This document shows positions 1 to 59,080 of a stretch of 64,000 nucleotides of DNA, piece by piece. Within the stretch, counting starts at the first letter, position 1, and the number at the start of each line of letters is the position of its first letter. Source of the stretch: Octopus vulgaris (taxonomy: Eukaryota); NCBI GenBank assembly GCA_951406725.2, contig OX597814.1:69626001-69690000 (forward strand), read 5' to 3'. The notes below the pieces were generated by a model. It was not told the DNA's origin. It ran no database searches and saw only the letters and a list, made by a program, of their open reading frames with translations. The position numbers and the translations under genes are program-made.

Positions 1-1306
1 GCATGTGATGGAATCTGTTGTCTGAGCATCTGTGGTGTTTATTGTCCCTGTGCATCTGCCACACACGAAAGCTATCGTCTCAGTTAATCTTCCTTTGATG
101 TTGCTGCACCTCTTATGTGTCCATAGCTTACACTTATGGGGTTTCTACCAACACCTTTTCTACAGATTGAGCAGGGCCACCTATCTGAGGGGTTTGTGAT
201 GTGTTTGCCTTCCTACTTACTAGGACTTTGGCTTTTGCAACATTGACTCTAAGGCCCTTCAATTCTAAACCTTGCTTCCACACCTGAAATTTCTTCTTTA
301 GTTCTGGTAGTGATTCCGCTATGAGAGCAAGGTCATCAGCATAGAGGATCTTCCAGGGGAAATCTGTCTTGAATTCCTCTGTTATTGCCTGGAGGACTAT
401 GATGAATAAAAGGGAGCTGAGGGCTGATCCTTGGTGAACCCCTACTTCTACCCGGAAGTCTTCACTATACTCATTGCCGACCCTTACCTTACTAACAGCA
501 TCCCTGTACAAGGCCTGTACAGCTCTTATTAACCACTCGTCTATCCCCAGTTTCTGCATTGCCCACCAGATAAGGGATCAGGGGACTCTGTCAAAGGCTT
601 TCTCCAAATCAACAAAAGCCAAGTATAGGGGGTTTATCTTTGGCTAGGTATTTCTCCTGCAGCTGTCGTACCAGGCATCAGTGGTGCTTCTATCTGGCAC
701 AAGACCGAACTGCATCTCATCTAAGCAGACTCTCTCCCTAATTAGTTGGGCTATGACCCTCTCTGTGACCTTCATCACATGATCCAGTAGTTTGATACCC
801 TTGTAGTTATTTCTATCTAAAGCATAATCTTTACCTTTGTAGCTGTTGACTATGGTACTGCTATGCCAATCATTGGGTATGACTCCTGCGTGAACTCCCT
901 GGTTTACAATACGGGTGACTAGGCCATAACCCATACCACCAGATATTCTAAGCATCTCAACAGTGATCCCTGATGGGCCAGGGGCTTTTCCTGACTTCAT
1001 ATACTTAATTGCTTTATCTACCAGGGTGCTATATATTCAGGTAGCTGGTCCCTTGACTGGGTCAATATTTGTCAGGTTCTCCTCCTCCCATTCATTCTCC
1101 ACATTCAGCAGCCTTTCATAATGGCATCTCCAAGCCTCTTTCTTTGCAGAATCAGTAAAAGCAAGTGCACCATCATCCATGCGGACACATTTCTCTTCTA
1201 TGACATCACAAATTTCTCTCACACACTGTCTTGCAATCCGAAATACTTCAGTTCTTTGGTCCTCATGTCGCTGAACATTGGCAAACTTCTTTTCTGTTTC
1301 TCCCAA
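1..1306 (-). mobile_element. RTE-clade LINE, RT fragment (degenerate)
   Basis: ORF fragments KSGKAPGPSG, QFGLVP, GVHQGSALS, LYADDL with frameshifts. Confidence 0.9.
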
Positions 1307-1339
1307 TGAGGATAGATAAAGGAGAATATGAATATCAAT

Positions 1340-2675
1340 ATGCCAATGTTAGATTAAGAAGGCAGGCAGCTAAACTGGTTGCTTTTGTCTTGGGAGAGAG
1401 GGAGAGGAGATTGCAGGTATGATAGAGGATACCACCAGTGTGGGAGGGGGTTTCCAGTGAGAGGAACAAGCACGCCCATACACCCCCCACACACACACAA
1501 GCACAAGATAGGCATGCACACAGACAAGAATAAGCACGCATGCATGCACACACACACATATGTACAGCCCATTAGCTTTCTCTTTCCACTTAAGTAGGTA
1601 GGCAGCTAAACTAGTTGCTTTTGTCATGGAAGGGAGAGAGGGAGGAGATTGCAGACATGATAGAGGATACCACCAGTGAGGGAGGGGATTTCCAGTAAGA
1701 GAAGAGAGATATCCGGTAATGGTGGTGGGAGAAGAGAGAGAAAGAGATCCGGTATTGGTGGTGGGAAAAGGGAGAGAGATATCTGGTATTGGTGGTGGGA
1801 GAAGAGAAAGAGATATCCGATATTGGTTGTGGGAGAAGAGAGAGGAATATCTGGTATTGGTGGTGGGAGAAAAGAGAGATATCCGGTATTGATGGTAGGA
1901 GAATAGAGAGAGATATCCAGTATTGGTGGTGAGAGAAGAGAGAGAGATAGATAGATAGATATCCAGTTTTGTTGGTGGGGGCTGGAATGGGCAGGTGCAC
2001 TATGAACAAGCAAGGGTTAATTTAGAGAGTTGGTACAAAAAAATATGTAGCCAACATGAGAACAGATTAGAAAAATACATGAAGAATTAAGGTGAAACGA
2101 AGGCTGAGAGAAAGAGAGATTAGGAAGTTATATATTGAAGGGTCAATTTAAATAATTAGCTTACAAAAGTAGGTATTAGTAAATAGTAAGTAGTAAATAA
2201 TACACATTAAATATTAGTAGTGATGGCGGATGAATGCATGAAAAAATCGAAAAATATCTTAGCGATAGTGGGCATCCAAGAAACGTCTGTGTTGGAAGGA
2301 ATTGCATGCAGAACAGGCAGGAAAATATGAGTAAAGAGTTTTATAGACGTGCTACTTTCTGAAGTGGGCATTATGGAGGGTGCCAAAGACAATAGAAATG
2401 GTAGTAACAGAGTAGCACAAGAAGCTATAGTGAATGACAAAAAATATTTAGCCAACATGAAACACAGAGGGAACAAGCACTCCGAACAAGCAAGGGTTAA
2501 TTTAGAGAGTTGGTACAAAAAAAAAAAAAAATATGTAGCCAACAGGGGAGGGGAGGAGATATTTCATTTAGAAAATTACATGAAGAATTAAAATGAAATG
2601 AAGGCTGAGAGAGAGTGAGAAATTAGGAAGTTATATGTTGAAGGGTCAATTTAAATAATTAGCTTATGAAAGTAG
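1340..2675. repeat. Composite repeat: duplicated ~110-bp block, purine-rich ~35-bp minisatellite (about 1700-1960) and duplicated ~170-bp block (2004-2175 / 2484-2675)
   Basis: aggcagctaaact..ataccaccagtg twice; gagagatatccggtattggtggtgggaga units; gaacaagcaagggttaatttagagagttgg twice. Confidence 0.75.
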
Positions 2676-3138
2676 CTTTGTACATATGTGTATATATCTA
2701 TCTTACATATATGCACAACACATAGTATGTGTATGTGTGTGTACACATAAATATATTTTCTTTTCTTCTTTTTTCTGTTCTTTGAATTGAATAAATATAA
2801 TATGTAAGACAGAAGATGTTTGTGTGTATGTGTCTGTATGTGTGTGTGTCAGGCTATTTACGTGCAACCCCTTAAAATCAATATTTTCCACCTGATTTCA
2901 TTCACTCTAAGCACATACATCCTTAATGTTTTGCAAATGATCCTACACTCTTTAGATTTTTCACTTATGGGGTAATATGGAGTAATGGGGCCTTTAGGGT
3001 CAGCTAAACCTGCATTCCTATAATACAGTACCTATTGTGGACAAGGGAGGTAACTCTTTGCGAAGTAACATTCAGAAATTGATTGTCTCCCTTACATTTG
3101 TATCCCTTGTGTACAATATATATACACACATGTATAAA

Positions 3139-3166
<28 letters not shown>

Positions 3167-3169
<3 letters not shown>

Positions 3170-3600
3170 TGATTAAAATTGTAAGACAACAAAAGAATGA
3201 GAGAGACCTCGATATTATGTAAATAGAGAGATTTATCTGTAAATATATGTAACAATTATTTGGTAGCCATGATAAAACTCCGAGTTTCAGATGCCGAGGT
3301 GGAAATCCATGCCGCCATCTCTTCAGTTATTTGGCTATCGGAAAAAATGCTATGAAAATGACCGTTATACAAAGGGAAATTACTGTGTGATTAACCATTA
3401 TTAAGACAAAAGAGCTATATGAATGACCGCTAAGTGAGGGGATGGAGTAAAAGTAAGGGGGTAAAAAGTAAAAATAATATTCGCATAAGCGTGCATGTCC
3501 ATACCTACACATGCACGCCCGCACACCTGCATACATGCACCTAAAAGTATACACCCATCCACCCTCTCTTGAAACGTACACATTCTCATCCACACCATTC
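3167..3600 (-). mobile_element. Penelope-like 3' UTR/pLTR remnant (same family as the 31.2-34.5 kb element)
   Basis: Homologous to 31225-31450; flanked by (TA)n. Confidence 0.8.
3271..3330 (-). ncRNA. Minimal type-I hammerhead ribozyme motif, intact core
   Basis: AUAA-CUGAAGA-GAUG..CAUC-U-GAAA-CUCGGAG-UU-UUAU on the minus strand. Confidence 0.7.
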
Positions 3601-3602
3601 GC

Positions 3603-3649
<47 letters not shown>

Positions 3650-3650
<1 letters not shown>

Positions 3651-4068
3651 ATACAAGTGAGATTGTTGCCAGAGCAACAAGCTGGCCTCCGTGCCGATGG
3701 CACGTTAAAAACACCATTCAAGCATGATCGTTACCTGCGTTGCCTTACTAGCACTTGTGCTGGTGGCACGTGAAAGAAAACATTCGAGTGAGGTCGTTGC
3801 CAGTGCCGCTAGACTGGCACCTGTGCAGGTGGCACATAAAAAGCACCATTTGAGCATGGCCGTTGCCAGTACCACCTAACTGGCCCTCATGCCAGTGGCA
3901 TGTAAAAAGCACCCACTTCACTCTCGGAGTGGTTGGTGTTAGGAAGGGCATCCAGCTGTAAAAACTCTGCCAGATCAGAGTCTGGTGCAGCCATCTGGTT
4001 CACCAGACCTCAGTCAAATCGTCCAACCCATGCTAGCATGGAAAACGGACGTTAAATGATGATGATGA
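3650..4068 (+). mobile_element. RTE 3' end with ~66-bp tandem units and (GAT)n tail
   Basis: gtgccg.tggcac units; tggttggtgttaggaagggcatccagctgt; gttaaatgatgatg. Confidence 0.85.
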
Positions 4069-4332
4069 TATATATATATACAATCTCACACACACACGCG
4101 CGCATCAAAAAAGTTCGTAAGCACAAGAAAAACAGGGCTAAGGGTAACAATACAGAAAAAGGTGTAAGGGAGTATAAAAATAAGCAAAGATTAAACCACG
4201 TCTATATACGCACATACCCATATGCACGCACGCACACAGACGTCTATATACACACATACCCGAATACGTCTATATATGCACACAAAAAAGTTCATACACA
4301 CATCTATATGCGCACATACACAAGAAAAAACA

Positions 4333-5879: not shown

Positions 5880-7500
5880 CAAGCTACTATAAATAGAGAA
5901 ATGAGAAGAGAGGAATTACTGTGCTGCAAGTTTCCACTAAGACTGAATGAAAACACACCACCACTCATTGCTTGTAATAAGGGTTCTGGCAAAGGTAAGG
6001 GAAGCACGAGCCCTTGTGGATAGAGGTTGCACAACAATTCTGATGACTGCAAGAATGGCAGAGAATTGTAGAGGAGACCCCAGCCTCGGTGTGGTGGATG
6101 GTTGGGAGGTCAGGTGTAGGGGTATCAGTGAAGTGGAACCAGAGATACAGAGGACAGTGATGAAACTGCAGGCAATTGTTGTTGATGAGGTGGTAGACAA
6201 TGTCAACATAGAAGTGTCTGATCAGTTGGATTTTGGCCTGAGTTCTGTGCCAGAGATCATGGCAAAGTCCTCAAGGTGGTTTTGGAGAAAAAGGCCAAAG
6301 TGGAGCAGGTTATATATATATTGATGACATCTTGGTAGATGTGAGTGTGGCATCAGTAGAAGAAACTGTGGCTCATCTGAGGTCTGAACTGATGGCAAAT
6401 CAACCAGAGGAGACACAGCGCTGGGGCTCAAACTTGAAAGAGATAAAGCAGATAGGCTTGTGTTTCAGAGAGGATCCCAGACCTGCACCAGGATATGAAT
6501 AAGTGAAGGCTGTTCTTGATGTAGGGAGCTGGTGGGACACTATCCTATTGCAGGATGGCTCCATACAACATGTAGGTACATCAAGAAGTGAACAGAAGGA
6601 GGGAACTAGGGTGATAAAGTGGGAGAGATGATTACAATGATGTGAGATGTCTTGGAGAGAGTGTGAGTGGAAGACCCAGTGAAGGGCAGTTGGTAAGTGC
6701 CTGAAACAGAAAAAGGGATCATATGGTGTGACAAAAGTAGTAAACGACAGAAGATTTTCCAAGTGGAGCACCCAAAACTGAGGTGGCTACACAACATGCA
6801 TCACATAGAGGTTGACAGGACTTTGTTTTAGGCCAGGATGATTGACCCCAATGTCACCAGGGAGAATTCTCAGAAGGTAGTTGGGACTTGTGACAGGTGT
6901 CAGTACAATCGACCTTGCAACAAGTGTGCATGAAATAGGAAAGATTCAAGTGTAGGAAGACTGGAAGAGGTAAGTGATAGACTTGATACACTTTTGGGGA
7001 AGGTAATACTTCACAGTGGTTGACTGTGGACCAGGGCGAATAGCAATATAGGGAGAAATTAGGAAGAAGACTGTGGCTGAAATTGCAGATGTACTGTATG
7101 CTGTGTTCTTGGAAAGGGGGCCAGTGGATGAGCTGTTGATGGACAATAGCACAGCTTTTTGCTCAGAACAGTTGAGGGAGATGCTTGAAAGATGAAACAT
7201 CAGACATTTCTGCAACTTTGCATACAGGCCCAGTGGAAATGGGATTATGGAACAACACCATTGCACAATTAAAGCCATGGCTGAGAGGGGATGAATCTCC
7301 CTCATGGAGGCAGTCTTCTGGTACAACATTTTGTCCAGGGTGGGACAAATTGAAGAATCGATCCTGCAAAGAGCCAAATTCTGGTACAAATGGTGACACT
7401 GAAGTGTGCTACCACGGCAGCTATAAGCGGAAGGAATTGCATCTGTCCAGATATGAGATGAAGTGTGGGCGAAGCCCCCTAATACACAACACAGTAGAAG
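5880..7500 (+). mobile_element. Degenerate Gypsy-like LTR retrotransposon internal remnant (protease and integrase; RT/RNase H apparently deleted)
   Basis: ALVDRGC protease-like motif; H..H..C..C near 6790-6900; VFLERGPVDELLMDN..YRPSGNGIME integrase core. Confidence 0.7.
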
Positions 7501-8147
7501 AAAGGAAGAGTGATCACAATCATTCCCTTTCCATTCTCTCCCATGCATTCATGATTTTCCCAATTCTCTCCTCTTTGTCTTTTTCTACAGATTATGCATG
7601 CAAACTTATAAATGCAACCATCTCACTTCTTTTCAATACTTGACACTTTCCTTTCTTTCCTTTTCCCGCAACCTCAATTTATATGTCTCTCTTCTTCTTG
7701 CTCTCTCTTTTTCTGTCTCCCCACTTTCTCTTTTCTTTTCTGTTTCCTCTCTTTCTCTCACACTCTCTATACGTATTCATCCTCCAAACTTAGTAGCTAA
7801 CTTACTGCTCTAACCATATATACTGAATTATTTCCATCAACTGGTTTACATTTTGAAATGTTTTAACTGAGGAAGGTTTTACATAATGGATGCATTTCCT
7901 ATTATATATTATGCAAACCTGAAACATGCATATTAAATGATTTCAAAATATCATTTTTTTGGTTTGACTCATTGTTACAACTTATACGACTTAATGTCAG
8001 AAGAAACTAGCTGTTCCAAACACCACCTATGCAGATACTCTAGCAACAATTTAGAGTAGTTTGTTATATTTGACTTGAGTTGAAAATTCTGGTACTGTTC
8101 ACCACTTCTAAGGATAATGGTGATGATGATGGTGTGTGTGTGTACGT

Positions 8148-8857
8148 ACTAGCAAAGTAGCTCATTAAGAAAATCTTTATTAGAGATGAAAGCATTATTT
8201 ACACTGAGAAGTAACGTTTTTTGCCACCTAAACATGTTCTATAAGAACAGATGATACTGCTATTTTAACCCCAGGAGGGTGCCTCCTCCATCTGATTATT
8301 CAGTGCACTTCACACTTCATATATATTGCAAGCAGGGAGAGAACTCAGAGACCGCCATATAACATGACTATGATTTTATTTGATCATCCTCAATGATGGA
8401 TGCTCATCTGCTGGACATAGCAATAGTTACCCCAGCTCACAATATATAGAAAACCAGTGTCACACAGTCACTGACTTTGCTGGAGGAAGCATCCTCCTGG
8501 GGTTAAAATTACAGTATTGTCTGTTCCTATAGAACACCTATGTTTATGTGGCAATAAACATTACTTCTCAGTATAAACACTGCTTTCATCTCTAATAGAG
8601 ATTTCTTTAACAAGCTAGTTTGCTAGTTGCAAGACCAGTGTCTGTATGACACTGTTTTTCTATATATTGTGAACTAGAAAAAACTACTACTATGTCTAGC
8701 AGACAAGTATCCATCACTGAGGATAATCAAATAAGAGAGAAATCATGTGATATGGTGGTCTTCAAGCTAGAATAGTAAGGAGATCTCTTCCCACCTGCAA
8801 TATATATCGAGTGCAAAGAGTACTGAATAACCAGTTGGAGGAGGCATCTTCCTGGGG
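8148..8857. mobile_element. Hammerhead-bearing ~330-bp non-coding repeat, one inverted and one permuted copy (retrozyme/pLTR-like)
   Basis: 8148-8480 is the reverse complement of unit U; 8481-8627 is the second half of U; 8628-8857 is the first half of U. Confidence 0.75.
8711..8758 (+). ncRNA. Minimal type-I hammerhead ribozyme motif
   Basis: CCAUCA-CUGAGGA-(weak stem II)-GAAA-UCAUGUG-AUA-UGGUGG; near-palindromic stem III. Confidence 0.7.
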
Positions 8858-9401
8858 TATCATCTGTTTTTACAGAACTCTCAAGTTTAGGTGGTGATAA
8901 ACATTGCATGTATGTATGTGCGTATGTATGCATGCATATGTATATGCATGTGTTCATGTGCATGTTTATGATATACTTATGCATGACTTGTATCTGAGTC
9001 TAAATGAGATGTATGCGTGCATGTATGCTATTAACATATTCTTTTAACTTTTTTCCAATTAATAAGTGGCAACAAGTTTTTTCATGCTTTGCTATATTAG
9101 TGTACAAAATTCTTCTAGTAATCAAATTCCTTTGAAATTTCTTCAGGCACAAGAGCTTATGCCTAAAAGTACATAGGTCAAAACATTTTACCATCCCAAT
9201 GCACAGTTTAATCTGAAAACAAGGAGCACACATACAAACAGAATTTGGATCTAAATTTTATATAGGTTATGAGGAATGTTTTGTAAACCCCTGGACAGGA
9301 ATGTTTTAGAAGTGAATGTAATGACTTGTTGTCAATCATTACATATAGTAATGAGAAAAATAATGGAATATTGGGCTACAAAAAGCCCATAATTCATTTA
9401 C

Positions 9402-9803
9402 CTTTGTAGCTGCCATCAACTGTTGCCAGTGACGATCACGAATAGCTGGGCTCTGTAAATCTCCAATAGCACGAAGTGATGTTATTACATTCTTCACATT
9501 ACTTTCTACTCCCAAATAAACATCCCATGTTCGCAATTCTTTATCCATCATCCTGATGTCCTTTGCAAATATCTTACAAGCCAGGTCCATATGGTCAACA
9601 TTAATGTCTACCCACAGTGTACATTTCCATTCTGCAATACTGGAACACACAATTTCAATATAATCCCAAAGATGCTTCAGCAAACGTAGATCCCTGCGGC
9701 ATTGCTTCAATTGTTTGAAGTCAGGAATGTTTACTTCAAATAGAGCAGCAGATATCTGAAGACTTTCCATTTCTTTTTCCATAGTGTATATTTCCACATG
9801 AGT
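9402..9803 (-). CDS. Dynein heavy chain exon (THVEIY...QLMAATK), start of the DHC_N2-type region
   Basis: ttttag acceptor, AAG|gtaaat donor; 402 nt; LFEVNIPDFKQLKQCR and AIRDRHWQQLM motifs. Confidence 0.93.
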
Positions 9804-21641: not shown

Positions 21642-23450
21642 CTAGCAGAATTGCCCGGCGTTGCTCGGGGCTGAATTGCTTGAAAGTACTGTTAATGATT
21701 GCACTGAATTATGATGATTATTCAGGCAAATATTGATATAAGCTTACGGTGGGAGATAAGGACTTAACGATCAAACGTGTGCCATTGCATTGTTTTGGGA
21801 GAACCAAATTTCTGATGAGCATTATAGGGGCACCAACTTTAAATTTGAGAAAGTGTGGTGGTAGTCCGGGGTGCTCAAAGGAATTGAGTACCTCTATTGG
21901 ATAGTTGATGACGTCCTCTGGGTCAGGAGTTGTATCGATAGACTGATATACATAGACTTCCCCAGGAATGAGTTTTAGCATTTCATCATTAATATGGTGA
22001 ACAGTTTTATTCCTCGGGGCCAGTATAGCCTTTTTGCCAATCCAATCCATATTCTGATAATTAGCTTGTAGATCTGGGAACACTGCATCTCTGAGATCAG
22101 AAGGCGTCTTAACAATGGTACAAATGGAATCGATGGCAATATTACCATTTTCATCCCCTGGTATTTTGCCTTCGCCAAGTGCAAGGAGGGTGTGAGGAAA
22201 TGCTGCTGATGTGATATTACGTCGCATATGAGCACGCATATTGGTGTGAAGTTTGAGAGTTACTTCCGTTTATTTTTAAAATTATGCATGAAAATGGAAA
22301 AAAATGATGGTAAATTATTTGTAAAATCATAGACTCATCGTAGACGCGCGCTAATACCCAGAAGGGCTCGATATGAATCACGACTATAAGATACCTGGTT
22401 TTGGTTAAACTGCATCGCAAAATGTGGGAGTAGTTAGGAATCTAAATCGGAGTAGACAGACACACAACCTTTCTTTTATATATAAATATTTTCATCCTAA
22501 AAAACTTTGTATGGATTGAATGGTTACCTCTATGGAAATATATACACGCACATTATACATACATGTGTGTATAGATGAATATATAAATACATTTAAATAT
22601 CTATATACACTTTTGGGCGATCTTTCTGTTTCTTAGAGATAACTTTAGATCTTATTTTCGTCCTAAAAAACTTTGTATGGAGTGAATGGTTACCTCTATG
22701 GAAATATATACACACACGTTATACATACATGTGTGCATAGATGAATATATAAATATATTTATATATCTATATACACTTTTGGGCGATCTTTGTGCTACTT
22801 AGAGATAACTTTAGATCTTATTTTCGTCCTAAAAAACTTTGTGCGGAGTGAATGGTTACGTGTATGGAAATATATACACACACATTATACATACATCTGT
22901 GTATAGATGAATATATAAATACATTTAAATATCTATATATACTTTTGGGCGATCTTTCTGCTACTTGGATATAGGTCTTATATTCGTCCTAAAAAACTTT
23001 CCAGTAACACACTCACACACACGCACATACACACACACACACGCACCCTCAAACACACACACACGCTCACACACACACACGCACGTTAGCTTACAATTTT
23101 ATTTATATATTTGCGTGTCTATGTGTGTAAATAGGAAGTGGGAGGCAGAGTGAAAGAGTCACTCACTTCAGAAAGTGAATTACTTTCATTTTATTCGTTG
23201 CACACTGTGTGTGTGCGTTTGCGTGTGCTGTATCCCACACTAAGAGAAGCATTTGACTCATACACCTCAATGTGAGTTTTCTGTAAATTTTGCTTAATTG
23301 GGGTTGAAATTTTAAAAAGTGGACCTGGCACGACCCGATGCATTCTACTCTTAAAAATGCTAGGTAAATTGTAATTGAAGAAATCCTATATTGTAGATTT
23401 CTATAAGATACAAAGGGAGGCAGATAAAATCTGCCTTTTATAATAAGAGA
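21642..23450 (-). mobile_element. Non-autonomous Helitron with Pif1-helicase fragment and 3 internal ~165-bp repeats
   Basis: 5' TC, 3' hairpin CCCGAGCAACGCCGGG then CTAG, between A and T; ORF with KAILAPRN and PIMLIRNL..CNGTRL. Confidence 0.92.
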
Positions 23451-28482: not shown

Positions 28483-28528
28483 TGGTGCTGAAGAGGAGCT
28501 AACCACCCTGAAATGCATGCATTCACCA
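28483..28528 (+). ncRNA. Minimal type-I hammerhead ribozyme motif
   Basis: UGGUG-CUGAAGA-GG..CCU-GAAA-UGCAUGC-AUU-CACCA; 5-bp stem I, palindromic stem III. Confidence 0.72.
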
Positions 28529-31171: not shown

Positions 31172-31224
31172 CATATATATATGGTATATATATATATGGT
31201 ATATATATATATATATATATATAT

Positions 31225-34200
31225 ATTGATAAAACGGTAAGATAACAAAAGAAAGAAAGAGACCTCAATATTATGTAAATAGAGGAAATTTATCTATACA
31301 ATATGTTACATTACTCGGTAGTCAAGATAAAACTCTGAGTTTCAGATGCCGAAGTGGAAATCCACAACACCATCTCTTCGGTTATCTGGCTATTTGAAAA
31401 CGTTATGAAAAAATACCGTTAAAAATGAAGGGAAATTACTCTGTTATAACTCTGCTTTGCCTGCGTACTTATACATCGCTCGCATTTTTCGTCATAAAAA
31501 TTATATAAAAATACATAAAAATATATAAAAATATATAAAAATATATAAAATCTTCTTGGGACATAACACAGAAAGCATGTTCTATCCGTTTTCTTTAGGG
31601 GACCAAAAACGTAACAGAAATTTAGTCACATGTGGGCATGATCCGAAAAGCTCTGTCCTTGTATTTAGACATGTGGTAGGGTCTAAGCTGCTTTTCCAGA
31701 TAAGCCATCTCTCCATGTCGCATAAACCGCACCTTCCGCTGCCGTTAGTATAGGGCTTACATCTGGCCAAAATCTTCCATTGTATGTTATAATCGACACC
31801 TTTATCTCTTAAAGACCAAATATGATTGGATAATTGTGTCGCTTTTCTTTTGTTCCAGTGCCTAAAGCTCAAAGTGTGGTTATTGAACCTGGCCTTGAAA
31901 TTACCCTCTGTCAGGCCCACGTATTTCTTCGTCGAAACGGTGTCTTTAGTGGTTATAGAGTTTACGGTAGCTTCATATATGATGGTCTTGGACATGCAAG
32001 CTCCATTTAGCGGGCACAATTCTTTATTCCTGCATGAACAGCTGTTTTCTTCTTGTGTTTTTTGTATGTTATGATTGATTATGTTTTTAAAATTGGTAGT
32101 TGAACTAAAACTAATTTTTAAATTGTGTCTATTGAAGAGTTTCCTATAAGCATGGTTAACTGGAAAATGTCTATCTATCAGTGCTAGGAAATATTTACCT
32201 ATATTGAAGGCCACCTCGGGCCTTCAATATAGGTAAATTATATATTCCTTTTCCTTATTGTTGGGCTGGTGATAGGTGTATATTTTATTATTTCGCTAAA
32301 ACCACTATCTTTTAAAGCTTTATTATAAACTGGGGCAACGCTATTGAAGATGTCCTCATTAGATGAGAGGCTAGAAATCCTCTTACTAATATTTTTAACT
32401 AAATTTTTGAATACTATAGGGGGATGGCATGAACCTACATTAATATAACTTAGTCTATCATTGGGCTTCCTATAAGGCTTATAAATATTATTATTAAGAT
32501 CTAAGGAAACGTCTAAGAAATTGACAACCGTCAGGTTAGTGTCTATAGTTATACTAAGTCCGAAGTGTTTCATTAACTGGATAATATCCTTCCTAAAACG
32601 ATCTTGTGCTGGTCCATTTGTAATTAGCTGTTAAGGCGAGGGCATCATCTTTGTAGATGGCGAAATGTACGTTAGGGAATGTCTTACCGAAGGTATCTAG
32701 GAGAAAGAGTCCAATTAGATCACAGATGCCTGCCCCATCATATGAACCCATGCTCACATTGAAAGCGCCCTCCGTGTCGGTGTTTTTTACCCACTTTGCA
32801 TTCTCACTGAAAAGTAATGTCTTTCTAGCATGGAAGATTACATCCTTATCATTGGTACTAATTTCTATGAAGTCACTAGCGAAGATTAGGGCTTTATCTA
32901 GCAGTTCTTTAGAGATAGAGGCATAAAAATCAACAATATCGAATTGTGTAAACCTCGCTTTTTTCTTATTCTTAATAGCTTTAAACCAGTCTACGACTTC
33001 TATACTATTGGACCATTGCACTAGCCTAGTATCGGTCTTAATTTTCGTATTTATTTTATCTAAAATTTCTTTGCTAATAATCCCTAGTTCTGACTTGGCT
33101 GGGTTGATAAGCCTACATTTAGGGTTGGAAAGGAAGTTTTCTTTGTGGTCTTTAATAGTAATAAAGGCCTCTTTTTGGGGGAGGGTTTCTATTTTTTTAT
33201 CTAATTTAAGTTTAGCGGCGATGACGCTAGCTTCTTTATTAATTTCGTTATATGTCTGTGCCCTAGCCTTAGTATAATTATTAATGATGCTGTTGTGTAA
33301 GAGTTGTGTGTATTTGCTGTTATCTACCAGGTATAAGTTCTTGGTTTTATCCGAAAAAAGTGCTTTTTTCTTGGAGCTTTTTATATGATCAATATCTATT
33401 TTCAATTTATGTTGGAAATTGTTAAAAGACTTCCGAAACTTTATTTTGCTCATGATCTTCAGCAGGTCCGCTTCGAAATCTTCCAAGCCTTTAATCCTAG
33501 GAGGGAATTTTTGGATTTTATCCGATAGCAAATGTTTTCCTTGGTGTTCGCTTCTGTGTCAAAAAAGAAAGCCTTCCATCTCATACGCTTAATTACATCA
33601 GTAATTTTTTGCAGAAGTTTCTTAGAGTAAAAATCCTTTGATGGGATCGGTATATTTTTCATAGAATAATCTATGTGATATGCGTCCATATTAGATTCTT
33701 TTGTTTGTGAGAGTCCTCAACCGATGTTAGGCGATAATCCCAAAAAGGTCGTATTAGCTCTTAGTTGAGAATAACGTCGTCCGGGAAGTGATTTATTGAT
33801 AAAACGGTAAGATAACAAAAGAAAGAAAGAGACCTCAATATTATGTAAATAGAGGAAATTTATCTATACAATATGTTACATTACATACGTGGGCCTGACA
33901 GAGGGTAATTTCAAGGCCAGGTTCAATAACCACACTTTGAGCTTTAGGCACTGGAACAAAAGAAAAGCGACACAATTATCCAATCATATTTGGTCTTTAA
34001 GAGATAAAGGTGTCGATTATAACATACAATGGAAGATTTTGGCCAGATGTAAGCCCTATACTAACGGCAGCGGAAGGTGCGGTTTATGCGACATGGAGAG
34101 ATGGCTTATCTGGAAAAGCAGCTTAGACCCTACCACATGTCTAAATACAAGGACAGAGCTTTTCGGATCATGCCCACATGTGACTAAATTTCTGTTACGT

Positions 34201-34515
34201 TTTTGGTCCCCTAAAGAAAACAGATAGAACATGCTTTCTGTGTTATGTCCCAAGAAGATTTTATATATTTTTATATATTTTTATATATTTTTATGTATTT
34301 TTATATAATTTTTATGACGAAAAATGCGAGCGATGTATAAGTACGCAGGCAAAGCAGAGTTATAACAGAGTAATTTCCCTTCATTTTTAACGGTATTTTT
34401 TCATAACGTTTTCAAATAGCCAGATAACCGAAGAGATGGTGTTGTGGATTTCCACTTCGGCATCTGAAACTCAGAGTTTTATCTTGACTACCGAGTAATG
34501 TAACATATTGTATAG

Positions 34516-34517
<2 letters not shown>
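31225..34517 (-). mobile_element. Near full-length Penelope-like element (RT + GIY-YIG; RWK motif suggests Hydra clade) with 90-bp direct and 633-bp inverted pLTR copies, in (TA)n
   Basis: ORF pieces 33689 to 31582: KRMRWKA, FDIVDFYASI, MGSYDG, YKDD, IIY..YVG, CGLC; 31225-31314 equals 33795-33884; 33885-34517 is the reverse complement of 31291-31924. Confidence 0.9.
34423..34483 (+). ncRNA. Hammerhead motif of PLE pLTR, core variant CCGAAGA (mirror copy on minus strand at 31326-31386)
   Basis: GAUAA-CCGAAGA-GAUG..CAUC-U-GAAA-CUCAGAG-UU-UUAUC. Confidence 0.6.
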
Positions 34518-34573
<56 letters not shown>

Positions 34574-37659: not shown

Positions 37660-39100
37660 CATCATCATCGTCATCATTTAACATCTGTTTTCCATGCTAG
37701 CATGGGTTGGACGGTTTGACCGGGGTCTGGGAAGCCATGAGGCTGCACCAGGCTCTAGTCTGATCTGGCAGTGATTCTCCAGCTGGATGCCCTTCCTAAT
37801 GCCAACCACTCTGTGAGTGTAGTGGGTGCTTTTTACTTGCCACTGGCACAGAGGCCAGAGGAAATAGGCGACGGCCTCAATTGGTTGGTGCTTTTTACAT
37901 GCCACCGGCACGGAAGCCAGTCAAGTGCTTTTTATGTGCCACTAGCATAGGTATCACAACTACAATTTCCATTTGATTTTCATTTTGATGTTGATGTACT
38001 TGACTCAATAGGTTTCCTCAAGCACAGCAGGTCACCCTATGATACAAGGTACTTTTGAATGGGCTGGGGCTGGTTATGCGAAACTAGTGTAGGATACAGC
38101 TGTGAACTCACTTTATTTGCTGGGTCTTTGCAGTCACAGCATATCTCCAGAGGTCCCGGTCTTTCATCATTGCTTCTGTGAGGCCCAACTTTCCAAGGTC
38201 ATGCTTGACCACCTCATCCCATGTCTTTCTGAGTCTACCTCTGACCTGGATTCCTTCAACTGTTTGGGAGTGGCACTTCTTCACACATCTCTCCTCATCC
38301 ATCCGCAGTACATGACCATACCAGTGCTAACATCTCTCTTGCATGCCACATCTGATGCTTCTCATGTCCAACATTTCTCTCAGGACACTTACACTCTGTC
38401 GTGTATGCACACTGACATGACTAACGGATCATGCTAGCTTCATTTCTTTCGAGCCTACGCATGTCCTCCATAGTCATGGCCCACATTTCACTGCCGTGAA
38501 GTATGGTAGTTTGCACACATACATCATACAATCTACCTTTCACTCTAAGCAAGAGGCCTTTTATCACCAGTAGGAGTAGAAGCTTTCTAAACTTTGCCCC
38601 GGCTATTCTTATTCTAGTGGTCACACTCTCTGAGCATCCACCCCCACTACTAACTTGGTACCTAGGTAGTGGAAGCCATCAACAACTTCTAGTTTCTCTC
38701 CCTGGAGTATGATGGAATCTGTTTTCTGAACATCTGTGGTGTTTATTGTTCCTGTGCATCTGCCACACATGAAAGCTATCATCTCAGTTAATCTTCCTTT
38801 GATGTTGCTGCACCTCTTATGTGTCCACAGCTTACACTGGGTACATCTTATGGAGTTTCTACCTACACCTTCTCTACAGATTGAGCAGAGCCACCTACCT
38901 GAGGGGGTGTGTGATGTGTTCGCCTTTCTACTTACTAGAACTTTGGTTTTTGCTACAGTGACTCTAAGGCCTTTTGATTCTAAACCTTGCTTCCACACCT
39001 GAAATTTCTTTTCTAGTTCTGGTAGTGATTCTGCTATAAGGGCCAGGTCATCAGCATAGAGGAACTCTCAGGGGCAACCTATCTTGAATTCTTCTGTTAT
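37660..39100 (-). mobile_element. 5'-truncated RTE LINE
   Basis: [29 protein letters not shown], 3' tail. Confidence 0.88.
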
Positions 39101-45470: not shown

Positions 45471-46364
45471 AGGAGGAGGAGGGGGATGACAGGAGCAGAA
45501 TTTAAGTCAGATATATGACATGTAGTTTCAGGTGAAATGTAACATATTGAACCACTGGCTATTTAAAGTATGTATAGCATAATTTCATTCCACTACAACA
45601 CTTTTGGTTACTCCAAGAAGACATATAACTGAATAACCCAGTCTAATTATCTAACAAGAGATATTGCTCCTGTTTCACAAAAAAAGGGATTCTCTGAAGC
45701 ATCTCTGTAATAATGTTACTCAGAGATCACAGCCCCAGTACTTTAGACATGTAATGAGAATGTTGCAGGAAAGAATCGCATGAAGGATTCAAGCTGAACC
45801 AACCAGCAGGAGATCTAGGGGTAGTCCAAGAATGAGATGCCTGGATAATATCCATAGTCTCAGCTAGTCATACTTGCGAATCCAGCAAGAAAGTGTAATG
45901 ATGGTTGCTACTGATAGGACCCTATAAATGAAGTACTTGAGGACTCCATTCTTATGATCCTCTCAAGAATAGAGGGCAAGAAGATGGGCAGTTATTCAAA
46001 AGGGCTTTCAGTTGTAGAGGTCCAATATTCCATCAACTCATGTTAAAGTTTACAAAATATCGTTCTACTTATGCAATGCAGAAAATACTGTTAAAACAGT
46101 AGCTCAGGCATCATTCGTCTATTTTGGCATGATTTCTATGGCTGGATGCCCTTCCTAACACCAACCACTTTTCTTTAATTAGATTATTCATACAGCAGGT
46201 ACAAGACCATAAAACTGTAAGGGGAGAGACATATCTAAGTAAAACTGTGTACAATTTGTATAAATAGTGTACAATTTCAATCTTCTAGTAATTTTCCAAT
46301 TCCAACTTTGGTAACAACCTACATAAAAACAAAAACATACACAAAATATAAAACAAAAACAAAC

Positions 46365-46620
46365 CTTCGCTATTCCAGTTCATTTGCTTTTCAGCTTGAT
46401 GAAGCTGCTCATCAATTACGCCAAGCTGGTTGACAATAAGAGGAAATTCCACAGTAAGGGCTGATGTACGAATATCATCGTACCAAAATACTGTTTGGTC
46501 AAGGTTTGTTACATACCGATAGAAATCATCTCTTCTAGCATATAATTCATTGCTGCTGTCAGGGATATTTGAAATACCTCTAATTTCCATGTATTTCACC
46601 TCTTTTAGGACAGCAGTTAG
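46365..46620 (-). CDS. Dynein heavy chain exon (LTAVLKEVKY...MNWNSE)
   Basis: ttcag acceptor, G|gtttgt donor; 256 nt, phase 0 to 1. Confidence 0.9.
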
Positions 46621-47945
46621 CTGAATATGTAAGAACACAGTTAGATTAAAATTAGTTAAATGGCTTTTTTAACTGTAGCTGTTGGAAGAAATTTTAAATA
46701 TATTGAAACAATATCATATTTTAAAATGAATATTAGAAATATCATACTGCAAAATATTCAATACATACAATAATCCTATATACCGTAATAATGCAACATA
46801 ATAATATCATACATAGCAATACACTATAAAGAGCAATATCATATATAACAACACTATTAATATCATATAAAACATTTATATGTTACTGAATGAAGCTCCA
46901 CATTATTTTACCATTTCTAATTCTATATTATCCAAATAAATATTTCTTTTTTAAATTTCAACATTCTTGATACTTAATGAAACCAGGAATGTTAACTGTC
47001 AACATGTGAAAGATTGGTCATTGCCATAAGTAAAATAGCCTCATAATCTTTATAAAACTAAAATTCAAAGTTCATTTTTGTTTGTGAATTCCATAGCAAA
47101 ACTAGTACTTTGTTGTGATAAAATGTTTGACTTCTATACTTTCTATATATTTTTTGTAAAATAATTTCCAGTGTATTTCTGATCAGTGGAACCTTCAAAA
47201 TAGAAAGATTTTTGTGCCTTATTACATCACAATGGAAAAGAAACATCTCTCCAATGATAAACAACAGACAATAATAAATAGAACAGTCAGACAGACATAC
47301 AAAAAAGCAAAATCCTACAGAGACTGACATACAAAGACACCACATGCACACATAGACATAATATACCAAATGCATAAACACACAAAAAAAGCACACCCAG
47401 ACTTCTAATAGCAAACACACATATATAGATTTATATGTAAGCATTTATCGATTTAAAACTATTTCAGTGAGAGACTGAACTAAAGGTAAATTAGTTTATA
47501 ATGTATGAAATATATAATTAATGTCTTCTGCAATTTTAAGAGTTATGAAATGTTTGTCTTTGAAATGTTTGAAATGTCTTTGAAATGTTTGTCACAAAGG
47601 AATAGGTATCTCTATTCGTTTGTCTCTCTTACTCTCTCTCCCTTTCTGCATGCACAAACACATATTAGATAAATAGATAGAAAGAGATGCTATGTTATAT
47701 ATATATATAAGAGTGCACTTTTCTATGCAAATCTTTAACACTCTAGTACTGAAAACTGTAAACTTTCACATGGAACTTTTGCATACAATGATATTAAAAA
47801 CAAAATGGTATCAAAATAATTGTAACTGGTTATTGAAGATGTACTAGTCTTTCTTTGTCTTCTTATTGGGAATACATATGTATGTACATATGTACACACA
47901 CACGCACACACCGCATGCACATACATACATACATACATACATACA

Positions 47946-48689: not shown

Positions 48690-50025
48690 ACAGAATATTA
48701 CATTTGGAGAATTTTGTATCACTGTAAAGTAGCAGGATAAACAACATACTTGGTTTTACCATTTGGTGTGAATATGAAGAGATTGTTGCCATTTCCAATT
48801 CTGGAACAACCAACATAAAGCTGACCATGGGAGAAGCACTGCTGCATGAGGAGAAGTCCAACAATTTTCAGTGATTGTCCTTGGCTCTTGTTAATTGATA
48901 TTGCAAAACTAACACTTACTAGAAATTGAAGTCTCTTGAATTCAAAGGGCATACATTCTGGAATCAGTGGACTTCTTGGAATAAACACGTTTTCTCTCTT
49001 TCCTTGTCCAGTGAGGATTGTTGCTGCCAAAAGATGTGGATGCATTTGCCTGACAATCAGTCTTGTTCCATTGCACAGCTTTAGAGGATACAGATTTCTC
49101 AAAAGCATGACTGGAACTATTTTCTTCAATGTCAGTTTGTTAGAAATCATTCCAGGAGGATCCAAAGAGTTAAGAAACTAAGTAGGATAATTCACATATT
49201 CACTGGGGTCTACAACAATATCAATATTTTTTTTCCTCGGTATTGATTGATTGCATAATTTTCCATTTGACAACCTGGACAGTTTCATTCTTTGGGTAAA
49301 CAACCTTTTGCAAGGAAAAAACTTCAAATCTGAAGAAGATGCAAAAACAACCTTGCATAATTTCATCACCTCTTGCTCTCCAGAATTCTTTGCTGCCGGC
49401 ATAAATAAGCTACTGATAAATTGGCAAAACTGTGTTGATAATTCAGGTGCATAATCAACTCTTCTACAGTTTTGACCAAAATGCCACAGCCATTTGGAAA
49501 AATGATGTCTCCATTACTGTCTTGCTGAATGCTTCTATTTCCCAGATCCAGTAGCTGAGCTGCAAATCTTCCAGTACCCAATTCTCTAAATAAACTGACT
49601 CTGCTGAAAGCTCAATCTGGCCAGAAGTCCAATCAGGCCAAAAGTCCAACCTGGCTGAAAGTCCAATTTGGGTGAAAGTCCAATTTGGGTGGAAGTCCAA
49701 TTCTTCAAAATTTCCTTCCAAGTGCTTCAATTCACAAACTCCATGGAACTTCAAAACTTTATGAACAAGGAACCTTTCACTAACTTGGATCTAGTTTTAA
49801 ATGAACTGTATTGAAAATATTTAAAAAATTTGTTGTAGCATATAACAAATCCTCATCCAGACCTGATCCCAATGCTGGGTGTTCAAGAACCAAATGAAGG
49901 TCAGATTTTCAATCCCAGGATCATCCTAATTCCAAAAATATGTCTATGTAGAGCACAGTTATACTGAGATAGCAGGTCCTGGATGGACAGACAGACAGAA
50001 TTTCATGTTTATTATCATAGCTAAG
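48690..50025 (-). mobile_element. Older Helitron remnant (Pif1 helicase C-terminus), interrupted
   Basis: MLLRNL..CNGTRL, FAISINKSQGQSL, FSHGQLYVGCSR; Helitron-like 5' end near 50020. Confidence 0.8.
49240..49455 (+). mobile_element. Mariner transposase C-terminal fragment inside the Helitron
   Basis: LQGKNFKSEED..FFAAGINKL..WQNCVD..G. Confidence 0.75.
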
Positions 50026-51719: not shown

Positions 51720-53050
51720 TAGTTTTCAAAGTGACAACTTACAGAGGGGAATTTTAAGGCCAGGTACAACAATCACACCTTGAGCTTCAGGTACTGGGAT
51801 AAAAGGAAAACGACCGAATTATCCAGTCATATATGGTCCTTAAAAGATAAAAGCATCAGTTAAAACATCCATTGGAAGATCTTAGCCAAGTATAAGCCTT
51901 ACGCCAACAGCAGTGGAAAGTGTGGTCTTTGTGATATGGAAAGATGGCTCATCTGGACAAGCAGCTTAGCCCCCCACAACATGTCTAAATTCAAGAACTG
52001 AACTTTTTGAATCATGTTCATATGTAGCTAAATATTTGTTACGTTTTTGGTTCCCACCCCACCAAGATCACAGATAGAACCTGCTTTTTATATTGTGTCC
52101 ACATACAAGTATTTTATCTCTCTACACTTTTTATATATATTTTTTACATGTTCTTTACATATTATTTTACATCTTTATAGATATATTTTTATATTTTTAT
52201 TGCTTTATATATTTTTACACATTTTTTTCTATATTTTACCTTTCACCTTGCATTTATCTTGTGCAAGTGCGCATATAGACATGTATATGAACTTATTTGT
52301 GTGTGTACGTGTGTGTGTATGTGTGCAGGTATGTTTGCATGTATATGTGGGTGGACAAGCGAGTGTTCCATGTGAGTGTGAGTGAGCATATGCATATATA
52401 GCATGTACATACTTTAGACATGTATTTGAATATAACTGTGTGCGTATGGGTATGTACACGTGTGTGTGCGGATATACATATGTGTAGATGTACGTGTATG
52501 GTTGCATATATATGTGGGTGCACATGCATGTGTTTCACATGAGTGTGAGTGAGCATATAGCATGTACATATTTTTAGACATGTATTTGAATATAACTGTG
52601 CGTGTATGGTTATGTGGATGTGTGTGTATGTGTGCATGGATATGTATACGTGTACATGCATGGTTGCATATATATGTGCATCTATTGGCATATGTGTGGG
52701 TGTGCATGTATGTGTTTCATGTGAGTGTGAGTGAGTATATGCATACAGGCACAGGTACATGGGTGTGCGTATGTGTATGTATGTACATGTGCACAAGTAA
52801 TTGCTATGAGCATCTTTACTTCTTTACTTTTACTTCCTCCCCTTTGGTTTTTTTCCCCTTATTTAATGGTCATTCTAATAGCTCTTTTGTCTTAATAATG
52901 GTCTATTACATAGTAACTTCCCTTTGTTTAACTGTAATTTTCATAGCATATTTTGATTGCCTCAGTAACTGTAGAGCTGCTGGAGCAGGTTTCTGCTCTG
53001 ACATCCGAAACTTGGAGTCTTATTATGGCAACCGAATAATTGTCACATAT
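51720..53050 (+). mobile_element. Older PLE 3' fragment (31-kb family): GIY-YIG end, microsatellite-rich UTR, decayed hammerhead at 52964-53024
   Basis: LTEGNFKARYNNHTLSF..CGLCDMERW; CUGUAGA..CCGAAAC-UUGGA-GUC-UUAU. Confidence 0.82.
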
Positions 53051-53060
53051 TATATTACAG

Positions 53061-53091
<31 letters not shown>

Positions 53092-53094
53092 TAC

Positions 53095-54945
53095 ATGATG
53101 GCCATCCACTCGTGAACGAGGAAGACCATTGCTGACCTTCAGGAACATTGTGCGCTCTAGGACTAACTTATATTTTGCATTTGTGGCTCCGTTAGTGGCT
53201 AATGAACCCAGCTCTTGACAAGCATACACGACTGCAAACATTGCAGACCAAGCTTTCCCCATTCACTATACGAGCCGTGCGCTTTCGCACAGCTCGCTTA
53301 AGTTCTTCATGCTGGATATGTGCTCTCTCAAAAGTGTCGATCCCCTCCTTAACCTGCTTCCTCCATCTGTGGCAATGACAGGCATTGTTCTCCCAGTCAG
53401 TGTCCTGTATATCAAAAGCCTTTAACGAGGAATTGACACAGTCCTTAAATCGTAGCCTTGGTTTCTCCTTTCATTCACAAGTTCTCCATAGAGCATCTGC
53501 TTAGGAATCCTTCTATCCTCCATTCTAATAAGGTGTCCAGTCCAACGCAACTGGTGCTTGTGTACCATCGCCTCAATACTCAAGTTATCAGCTGTCCTCA
53601 GGATCTGTGTGTCTGGAATTTTTGAGGTCCAGCCAACATTGAGAATGTGTCTGAGACATCTCTGATGAAAACATTGAAGGACTCTTACCTGACGTTTGTA
53701 CAGAGTCCATGTCTCACATGAGTAGAGAAGTGATGTCAGTGCACAAGCACAGTACACAGCAACTTTTGTTCTCCTTGCAATGCCATGTTGGGACCAGACA
53801 CGAAACTGAAGAGACTGGAAGGAATTAGTTGCTCTCTGCAGCCTGAAATATATTTCCTCATCCAGAGAGCAAGAACGGCTGAGTGTGCTGCCCAGGTAGA
53901 CAAACTTGTCTACTACCTTCAGAATTGTTCCTTCAACCAAGATAGCTGGTTCTATAAATGGATTTCCTGGTGCAGGCTGGAACATTACAACAGTCTTGTC
54001 CAGGCTAATGCTGAGTCCAAATGCCCTGCAAGAAGCAGAAATGCAATTCATGAGTATTTGCATGTCATCCACTGTATGAGTGACTAAGTCACAGTCATCT
54101 GCATAAAGGAGGTCATGAATAATAGACTGGGAAACCTTTGAATTGGCAGCAAATCGGCGAAGATTAAAGAGGCGACCAGAAGATCGATATCTGACATATA
54201 TTCCCAGAGAGCTAACCTTAGCAAAAGCATGAGTAAAAGCAGTAGCAAAGTACAAAGAAAAAAGAGTTGGGGCAAGGATGTCACCCTGCTTGACACCATT
54301 CTCTACAGGAATGGGTCCCGCCATGGTACCACTAACATTGACCCAAGCCTCCATCCTATCATGAAATGATTTAATTATAGATACAAAATGATCCGGACAT
54401 CCAAGTTTGCCAAGTATTTTCCATAGAAAGGCCCTACTTACAGTATCAAAGGCCTTAGTTAAATCAATGAATACCTAGACAAGATCCATATTCTGCTCAT
54501 AGCACTTCTCCTGCATCTGTCTTGCTGTGAAAATCATATCCATTGTCCCTCTACCAGATCGGAAGCCACATTGAGATTCAGATAGGACATCATTTATGAG
54601 ACACCCATTCAGACGGGTAAGAAGAATAAGTAAATTGAATCTTGGTAGGGCACCTGGAAAGGATGGAATTTGTGCCGAGGTTTTGCGATTTGGTGGTAAT
54701 TGCATCACACAGTCCCTTCATGAACTTATTAGTGCAGTCTGGAGAGATGGTGCAATCCCTAAGGACTGGAAGGATGCAATTATTCTTCCTCTATATAAAG
54801 GAAAAGGAGCCAGAACAATGTGTGGTAACTACAGAGGTATTGCTCTACTATCAGCTGCTGGCAAGGTTCTGGCAAATATTCTTCTTACCCGTCTGAATGG
54901 GTGTCTCGTAAATGATGTCCTATCTGAATCTCAATGTGGCTTCCG
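53095..54945 (-). mobile_element. RTE (BovB-like) LINE with inverted 5' segment
   Basis: Minus-strand RT (QCGFR, GVKQG, YADD, YLGS) 54628 to 53095; plus-strand upstream segment 54629-54945 (GRAPGKDG, NYRGIALL). Confidence 0.9.
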
Positions 54946-54994
54946 ACATATATACATACATATATATATACATACACACACACACACACACACG

Positions 54995-55067
<73 letters not shown>

Positions 55068-55343
55068 CAAGTAAATGGTGTTGATGTTTTAGAAGGTCCG
55101 TTACGGATATATTGGCAAGTTACTATACCAATACAGTTAAAACATTGTGATGACGTCCCTGTACCACCAATTGCATCATGGAGACACAGCTATTATGCTA
55201 CTCCAACTGGTAATGGCCTTAATGTTGATGCTGAAGAACCACAGGTAGGCTTCTTATGTATTCTCTATTTATGTGTATGTGTGTGTGGGCGTGAATATTA
55301 AACATTGTTTGTATCATAAAATATACATGTAAAAGGCTTCTGC

Positions 55344-57113: not shown

Positions 57114-59080
57114 TCTCTTATTATAAAAGGCAGATTTTATCTGCCTCCCTTTGTATCTTATAGAAATCTACAATATAGGATTTCTTCAATTACAATTTAC
57201 CTAGCATTTTTAAGAGTAGAATGCATCGGGTCGTGCCAGGTCCAGTTTTTAAAATTTCAACCCCAATTAAGCAAAATTTAGAGAAAACTCACATTGTGGT
57301 GTATAAGTCAAATGCTTCTCTTAGTGTGGCCTACACCACACGCACACGCACACAGACAGTGTGCAACAAATAAAATGAAAGTAATTCACTTTTTGTAGTG
57401 AGTGTAGTCAGTCTGCCACTTCCTCTTTACGCACATAGACACGCAAATATATAAATAAAATTGTAAGCTAACGTGCGTGTGTGTGAGTGTGTGTGTGTGC
57501 GTGTGTGTGTGTGTGAGGGTGCGTGTGTGTGTGTGCGCGTGTGCGTAAGTGTGTGACAGGAAAGTCTTTTAGGACGAATATAAGACCTATATCCAAGTAG
57601 CAGAAAGATCGCCCAAAAGTGTATATAGATATTTAAATGTATTTATATATTCATCTATACACAGATGTATGTATAATGTGTGTGTATATATTTCCATAGA
57701 GGTAACGTTTCACTCCATACAAAGTTTTTTAGGACGAATATAAGATCTAAAGCATATACAAGTAGCAGAAAGATCGCCCAAAAGTGTATATAGATATTTA
57801 AATGTATTTATATATTCATCTATACACAGATGTATGTATAATGTGTGTGTATATATTTCCATACACGTAACCATTCACTCCGCACAAAGTTTTTTAGGAC
57901 GAAAATAAGATCTAAAGTTATCTCTAAGTAGCAGAAAGATCGCCCAAAAGTGTATATAGATATATAAACGTATTTATATATTCATCTATGCACACATGTA
58001 TGTATAACGTGTGTGTATATATTTCCATAGAGGTAACCATTCACTCCATACAAAGTTTTTTAGCACGAAAATAAGATCTAAAGTTATCTCTATGAAACAG
58101 AAAGATCGCCCAAAAGTGTATATAGATATTTAAATGTATTTATATATTCATCTATACACACATGTATGTATAATGTGCATGTATATATTTCCATAGAGGT
58201 AACCATTCAATCCATACAAAGTTTTTTAGGACGAAAATATTTATATATAAAAGAAAGGTTGTGTGTCTGTCTACTCCGATTTAGATTCCTAACTACTCCC
58301 ACATTTTGCGATGCAGTTTAACCAAAACCGGGTATCTTATAGTCGTGATTCATATCGAGCCCTTCTGGGTATTAGCGCGCGTCTACGATGAGTCTATGAT
58401 TTTACAAATAATTTACCATCATTTTTTTCCATTTTAATGCATATTTTAAAAAATAAACGGAAGTAACTCTCAAACTTCACACCAATATGCGTGCTCATAT
58501 GCGACGTAATATCACATCAGCAGCATTTCCTCACACCCTCCTTGCACTTGGCGAAGGCAAAATACCAGGGGATGAAAATGGTAATATTGCCATCGATTCC
58601 ATTTGTACCATTGTTAAGACGCCTTCTGATCTCAGAGATGCAGTGTTCCCAGATCTACAAGCTAATTATCAGAATATGGATTGGATTGGCAAAAAGGCTA
58701 TACTGGCCCCGAGGAATAAAACTGTTCACCATATTAATGATGAAATGCTAAAACTCATTCCTGGGGAAGTCTATGTATATCAGTCTATCGATACAACTCC
58801 TGACCCAGAGGACGTTATCAACTATCCAATAGAGGTACTCAATTCCTTTGAGCACCCCGGACTACCACCACACTTTCTCAAACTTAAAGTTGGTGCCCCT
58901 ATAATGCTCATCAGAAATTTGGTTCTCCCAAAACAATGCAATGGCACACGTTTGATCGTTAAGTCCTTATCTCCCACCGTAAGCTTATATCAATATTTGC
59001 CTGAATAATCATCATAATTCAGTGCAATCATTAACAGTACTTTCAAGCAATTCAGCCCCAAGCAACGCTGGGCAATTCTG

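Follow-up and report, generated by a model that had tools for sequence, protein, structure and literature searches.

A hammerhead-carrying repeat in a probable dynein intron of Octopus vulgaris: a likely relic of a PLE-mobilised retrozyme family

Introduction

What kind of element is the hammerhead-carrying repeat, here called U, that lies in inverted copies in the window (the whole 64-kb stretch of Octopus vulgaris DNA analysed), how was it inserted, and did a circular RNA serve as its template? Such repeats are known from cnidarians, mussel, insects and many vertebrates (excerpts of PMC7229834 and 10.64898/2026.07.22.740005). The non-LTR retrozymes of mussel (350 to 390 nt) and axolotl (330/350 nt) form circles, and PLEs have been called a strong candidate for moving animal retrozymes (both from an excerpt of PMC7229834). 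In a survey that sampled no mollusc, retrozymes were found in 20 of 31 vertebrates and linked to PLE ends (10.64898/2026.07.22.740005); the mechanism was left open, and one of nine predicted dimers cleaved (Li, Clavereau and Pollet 2026, 10.64898/2026.07.22.740005). For the giant squid genome 235 Rfam hammerhead_1 loci were reported as a count, with no element described in the excerpted text (PMC6962438). Among the papers listed in searches of the open-access literature, we found no description of a cephalopod retrozyme family.

Results

Layout and limits of the repeat

Repeat finding, alignment and self-BLAST showed that U is present as one minus-strand copy and a divergent plus-strand array, flanked on both sides by microsatellites:

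8118 to 8147, no strand: left target microsatellite, (GAT)n followed by (GT)n, as read from the sequence
8480 to 8148, minus strand: full-period copy of U, half A followed by half B, 333 nt; its 3′ "long" end faces the left microsatellite
8480/8481, no strand: head-to-head (divergent) inversion join of the copies' 5′ ends
8481 to 8628, plus strand: B half, 5′-truncated start of the array, 87% identical to the minus-strand B
8629 to 8835, plus strand: A half, carrying the hammerhead, 79% identical to the minus-strand A
8836 to 8907, plus strand: B′, a partial third copy with a 12-nt gap; its 3′ "short" end corresponds to B position 8562-8564
8908 to 9030, no strand: right-hand target microsatellite, a degenerate (TATG/TGCA)n whose right limit is approximate

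These identities refer to the alignment without gaps, in which B′ reached 78 to 84%, and self-BLAST of the arms gave E values of 1e-65 and 9e-62. The copies differ from each other by 13 to 21%, mainly by transitions. The period on the plus strand is 355 nt and the unit overall measures ~350 to 355 bp. The minus-strand copy falls ~21 nt short of the period on the plus strand because of three gaps (16, 4 and 1 nt), at the largest of which other U copies in contigs carry ~15 letters. The unit length of ~330 bp given in the preliminary description is therefore approached only by the minus-strand copy of 333 nt, whose position (8148 to 8480) and A-then-B order were confirmed by repeat finding, alignment and BLAST. 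For the plus strand the description had the order of the halves right, B (8481 to 8627) before A, but the array does not end at 8857, a limit within which the first 22 nt of B′ alone fall. It continues to ~8905-8907 and comprises 1.2 head-to-tail units, which is what the proposed circular permutation amounts to, although the order of halves on which that proposal was based is present.

BLAST revealed no further copies of U within the 64-kb window; a 21-nt match at 41756 (E 0.045) is probably due to chance. No open reading frame of at least 110 amino acids overlaps U, all three sense frames contain stops, and the GC content is 36 to 38%. A target-site duplication, which in retrozymes exceeds 4 bp where present, was not discernible at U, both ends of which lie in microsatellite.

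Two features place the repeat relative to a host gene:

9342 to 9803, minus strand: open frame with a dynein heavy chain exon, matching positions 1-103 of 403 of DHC_N2 (E 1.1e-23)
46288 to 46668, minus strand: DHC_N1 exon, on the same strand as the DHC_N2 frame

U thus probably lies in a dynein intron, downstream of the DHC_N2 exon on the strand of the gene. The best protein match of the dynein sequence came from a land snail (68%), and no cephalopod was named among the matches of the protein searches.

Hammerhead motifs in both copies

Both copies of U carry a hammerhead motif:

8711 to 8758, plus strand: type I hammerhead with a helix I of 6 bp, an intact core and a broken helix II
8399 to 8352, minus strand: decayed type I hammerhead with four changed core positions, helices I, II and III each being interrupted by one mismatch

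The plus-strand motif had been described as intact. This holds true for the core (CUGAGGA, GAAA and AUA) and for helices I and III, but not for helix II. Helix III, 3 bp long and closed by a 4-nt loop, is self-complementary over 10 bp, the self-duplex of a dimer having an energy of −8.6 kcal/mol. One extra U follows A9, and the predicted cut site is after 8752; AUA is a natural hammerhead cleavage triplet (excerpt of PMC1636495). With a descriptor that was fixed after the motif had been seen, it was the sole match with a helix I of at least 6 bp on both strands of the window, compared to 0.01 expected per window from 200 shuffles. The minus-strand motif is decayed, as claimed previously, with its four core changes at 8399 to 8352; it retains the helix II letters that were lost from the plus copy.

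An Rfam scan gave no hammerhead match for either motif (E values up to 10, gathering score, three settings), and the Rfam matches listed were weak and located mostly over the right microsatellite. The hammerhead shape was absent from the minimum-free-energy folds of both motifs. Judged from their letters, both local ribozymes are probably dead. The hammerhead on the sense strand of the host gene has four core changes, the antisense one none. As one change inactivates and one of the four lies at an inferred CpG, we claim no selection on the minus-strand hammerhead. When U was folded as a circle, the z scores against 60 shuffles were −1.7 for the minus copy, −2.9 for the plus copy, −3.7 for the antisense and −1.2 for the control; folding was mildly better than that of the shuffles, without strand specificity and with the antisense best.

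Two further motifs of this type were observed in the window. The first, at 7851-7945 (plus strand, core at 7867), is unrelated to that of U and has a PLE-like form with a helix II of 6 bp and a long loop, a helix I extendable to ~15 bp and a damaged helix III. It belongs to a separate multi-copy repeat reaching to ~8119, which ends beside the left microsatellite of U. The second, at 28483-28527 (plus strand), is a type I candidate whose helix I measures 5 bp and whose helix III is palindromic; by chance, 0.035 such motifs are expected per window.

Copies of U in public contigs

Contigs of four of 24 sequencing runs were aligned to positions 7900-9200 at 80% likeness; the runs X5, X14 and X11 represent the coded organisms A, E and D, respectively. 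The majority letter at one position of B was found in up to 84, 103 and 68 contigs of X5, X14 and X11, and the majority letter at the hammerhead in 19 to 23 contigs of these runs, all of these tallies being counts of contigs and not copy numbers. In X5 the summed depth was 75 to 4200 over U compared to 14 in the right flank, which likewise gives no copy-number estimate. A single-copy U would have spoken against a retrozyme, but dozens of distinct contigs per position were present in three organisms. The other possible objection, that the family lacks the hammerhead core, also found no support among the listed letters, as other copies favour the core letters.

The boundary from B to A was crossed by nine pieces with at least 31 letters on each side, among the 32 listed of 10,968. 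Two of the nine represent this locus or its orthologue; the other seven differ by 13 to 19% and are other copies. Among the pieces listed, records 2, 20 and 25 together with four go-back joints extend across the adjacency from A to B. Other copies of U thus span each of the two unit boundaries, which fits a head-to-tail family.

The inversion join itself was spanned by record 26 of X5 with no differences, i.e., by this locus, and by record 9 of X14 (organism E) with 16 differences in 280 positions, i.e., by the orthologue. It is thus present in organisms A and E at ~6% difference, while the local copies are 13 to 21% apart, and the insertion would predate the A/E split.

The contigs also suggested how helix II may look elsewhere in the family. 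At 8725 and 8737 the majority letters were found in 23 and 14 contigs of X5, with X14 and X11 being similar; together with the minus-copy letter that matches 8738 they give a helix II of 4 bp with a 6-nt loop. This helix is a composite of majority letters (among the 40 listed of 321 differences) and the minus copy, and thus of several molecules. At 8354, 8361, 8368 and 8370, four positions damaged in the minus-strand hammerhead, two X14 contigs had the plus-copy letters, one of these contigs being changed at U16.1. Among the listed pieces, of which those from other loci are at most ~250 nt long, there was neither a single molecule with an intact hammerhead nor a dimer with two hammerheads.

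Record 16 of X14 is an 860-nt contig with ~70-fold depth, compared to 3- to 19-fold in the other X14 pieces listed. It matches U over ~300 nt, in the order A then B, up to ~8568 near the short 3′ end, and may represent a young U subfamily or a coding parent. In run X17, taken for RNA only by guess, low-depth pieces covered U but left most of the hammerhead region uncovered, so that this run is uninformative on expression. Pattern matches in metagenome, viral and GTDB collections (44, 0 and 4 loci) aligned over at most 43 nt and were treated as chance.

Insertion ends and a neighbouring PLE

Both outer ends of U are 3′ ends inside a microsatellite. Counted downstream from the predicted cut site, they lie at ~230 and ~165 nt and are staggered by 63 to 65 nt, a value from one locus. 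Two simple origins of these ends were rejected. With positions of −123, +84, ~+165 and +230, no end coincides with the ribozyme cut site, and classical single-breakpoint twin priming would need a deletion of ~200 nt.

A fresh PLE in the same window offers a comparison:

31221 to 34518, minus strand: fresh Hydra-type PLE with frameshifted RT and GIY-YIG frames, ~23 kb from U

Its main copy comprises one 2570-nt period plus 94 nt (a 94-nt pLTR), and its inverted partner has one mismatch in 634 nt (~99.7% identity). Each 3′ end is embedded in (TA)n, the stagger (tail) being 67 to 70 nt, and the layout is divergent as in U. The RT-like frame had no Pfam match of its own, but a homologue matched RVT_1 (E 7e-5); the GIY-YIG match was weak. 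With Hydra-clade PLEs this element shares RWK, DKT and CxCx5C motifs (by eye), the short length and the (TA)n target. A relaxed scan found no canonical hammerhead in it.

PLEs are known for inverted partners, a one-sided tail and a microsatellite bias (excerpt of PMC8557442). In work with a purified PLE protein, both strands of the target were cut and extended; synthesis began internally, at two positions downstream of the hammerhead by which the tail is defined, and was independent of hammerhead cleavage (PMC11167929). The earlier suggestion that the inverted join of U is a PLE hallmark is thus upheld: it has the form of a PLE-style inverted insertion, and the neighbouring PLE has the same layout. 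A derivation of U from this particular element was rejected because of a lack of sequence likeness (best E 0.28). As U shares no sequence with it and lies in a different microsatellite, the partner of U was probably another PLE family. At or near U no RT or GIY-YIG frame was found at this locus.

Other elements were observed in the window. Older fragments of the Hydra-type PLE lie at ~3108-3391, 51738-52168 and 52904-53088, and a decayed, stop-rich stretch resembling an LTR-retrotransposon integrase was seen by eye in the translation of 6700-7510 (plus strand). LINE-type reverse transcriptase fragments are located at 137-577, 38624-39067 and 53425-55081, one of them with a PHD-finger-like tail. 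Two 166-bp tandem arrays (22487-23000 and 57561-58239) have frames for a Pif1 helicase 2B domain near them (21721-22269, 48722-49177 and 58457-59005), which is suggestive of Helitron-type pieces.

Discussion

A PLE-mobilised retrozyme

The layout, the contig copies and the insertion ends, all of them sequence data, point to U being a non-autonomous, PLE-mobilised non-LTR retrozyme, and to this locus being an old, dead relic insertion in a dynein intron; we consider this reading probable, with room for doubt. Like animal non-LTR retrozymes, U is non-coding and arranged head-to-tail, measures a few hundred nucleotides per unit, has a GC content below 50% and a probably canonical type I hammerhead, and occurs in many dispersed copies alongside PLEs. 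Its unit length falls within the retrozyme range of ~150 to 450 bp, and the composite hammerhead agrees with the form that is canonical for type I in animals, with 6 bp in helix I, 4 bp in helix II and a short palindromic helix III (excerpt of PMC4209133). The retrozyme family proposed in the preliminary description is to this extent borne out, as U is multi-copy, non-coding and head-to-tail with a type I hammerhead. Where Li et al. (2026) ask of an active retrozyme at least two consecutive units, each with a complete hammerhead, this locus has one damaged hammerhead per strand, and instead of a long array it has 1.0 and 1.2 units in head-to-head orientation. Neither inverted pairs nor staggered ends are described for retrozymes by Li et al. 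(2026) or in the excerpt of PMC7229834. The giant squid hammerhead_1 loci, as far as the excerpt of PMC6962438 describes them, match Rfam, in contrast to the hammerheads of U.

With endonuclease-positive PLEs, U shares the inverted 5′-truncated partner, one longer 3′ end, the microsatellite target, 3′ ends downstream of the hammerhead and off the cut site, and the extra nucleotide after A9. In contrast to PLEs it has no open reading frame, and its unit is closed at ~350 nt. Its hammerhead has a helix I of 6 bp, a helix III and a helix II of at most 4 bp, whereas the minimal PLE form has 4 to 5 bp in helix I, no helix III and 7 to 8 bp in helix II. The stagger of 63 to 65 nt is longer than the PLE tail of 30 to 40 nt given in the PLE literature consulted.

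The history of the locus could be as follows. A tandem source locus would have been transcribed, and the hammerheads, as monomers or as helix III dimers, may have excised monomers that a host ligase would circularise. Judging from the layout, a PLE RT/GIY-YIG endonuclease acting in trans would have nicked both microsatellite strands, and each nick would have primed the synthesis of cDNA from within the RNA, at ~230 and ~165 nt past the cut site. The end product is seen: divergent copies of 1.0 and 1.2 units with their 3′ ends facing outward. Later decay would account for the 13 to 21% distance between the copies and for the damage in both hammerheads.

Was the template a circle?

The preliminary description had attributed the permutation to reverse transcription of a circular or multimeric RNA. 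A multimer is compatible with the pattern, but a circle is not required by the permutation alone, since a read-through multimer or a template jump yields the same pattern. The circle step is therefore put forward as a hypothesis, for which the minus-strand copy provides the motive. This copy is one period less one base long, with neither end at the cut site, and its 5′ end lies one base past the position of its own 3′ end in the tandem. By a rough hand estimate made post hoc, a random truncation would land so close with a chance of ~1/100. A tentative explanation is that the minus-strand copy represents the footprint left when a PLE reverse transcriptase made one turn on a monomeric RNA circle, starting internally and stopping at its own cDNA, and that the 63- to 65-nt stagger of U and the 67- to 70-nt stagger of the PLE each reflect two start sites from two nicked strands; we hold these two proposals jointly, as a possibility and not as the expected outcome. 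For the minus-strand copy, one turn on a circle without strand displacement and a linear RNA from A with template jumps are equally good explanations, and for the 1.2-unit plus copy a multimer or strand displacement is needed.

Alternative explanations

U might instead be the terminal repeat of a coding PLE, made up of a pLTR plus tail and perhaps duplicated in tandem internally, the locus then consisting of 5′-truncated inverted ends. PLE insertions have exactly this layout. Pairs of opposite-strand hammerheads 100 to 700 bp apart have been interpreted as PLE remnants, and an additional nucleotide after A9 is a typical trait of PLE hammerheads (both from an excerpt of PMC4209133). Furthermore, 24 of 57 frog retrozyme families are homologous to known transposable elements, and 21 of 22 of these matched elements are PLEs, matching at their ends (Li et al. 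2026); X14 record 16 might hold the body of such an element in its remaining 560 nt. We nevertheless regard this origin as unlikely. In the seven other copies listed, A follows directly on B at the very boundary that a coding body would need to occupy, an RT or GIY-YIG frame is absent at or near U, and the presence of a helix III together with the inferred 4-bp helix II is unlike the minimal PLE form.

Less probable still, and in our view quite unlikely, is an origin without a PLE enzyme, either by two independent insertions of a hammerhead repeat or by a DNA-level fold-back inversion in a microsatellite hot spot. A second multi-copy hammerhead repeat does end beside the same left microsatellite, and copies 13 to 21% apart are no proof of a common template. 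However, the 5′ ends abut with neither spacer nor microsatellite between them, the arms are not mirror images about the join as a simple fold-back would give, and the fresh PLE with the same layout and one mismatch in 634 nt indicates that such pairs arise in one event. A chance hammerhead in an ordinary repeat, or an assembly artefact behind the inverted layout, is very improbable: the missing Rfam match, the folds without a hammerhead and the descriptor selected after the motif was seen would allow it, but only 0.01 matches are expected per window, the letters needed for pairing and for the core are favoured among other copies, and the join, whose arms differ by 13 to 21%, is spanned by contigs of two studies and two organisms.

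Significance

As a family record, U would extend a known class to one more animal lineage, possibly the cephalopods. The locus is also a test case in two respects: the same end geometry occurs within one window at an insertion of retrozyme type and at a fresh coding PLE, and one copy of U is almost exactly one period long. If the circle footprint proved true across the family, a step that has been proposed but is unproven in the literature would be recorded in the genome, namely the use of retrozyme circles as templates by PLEs.
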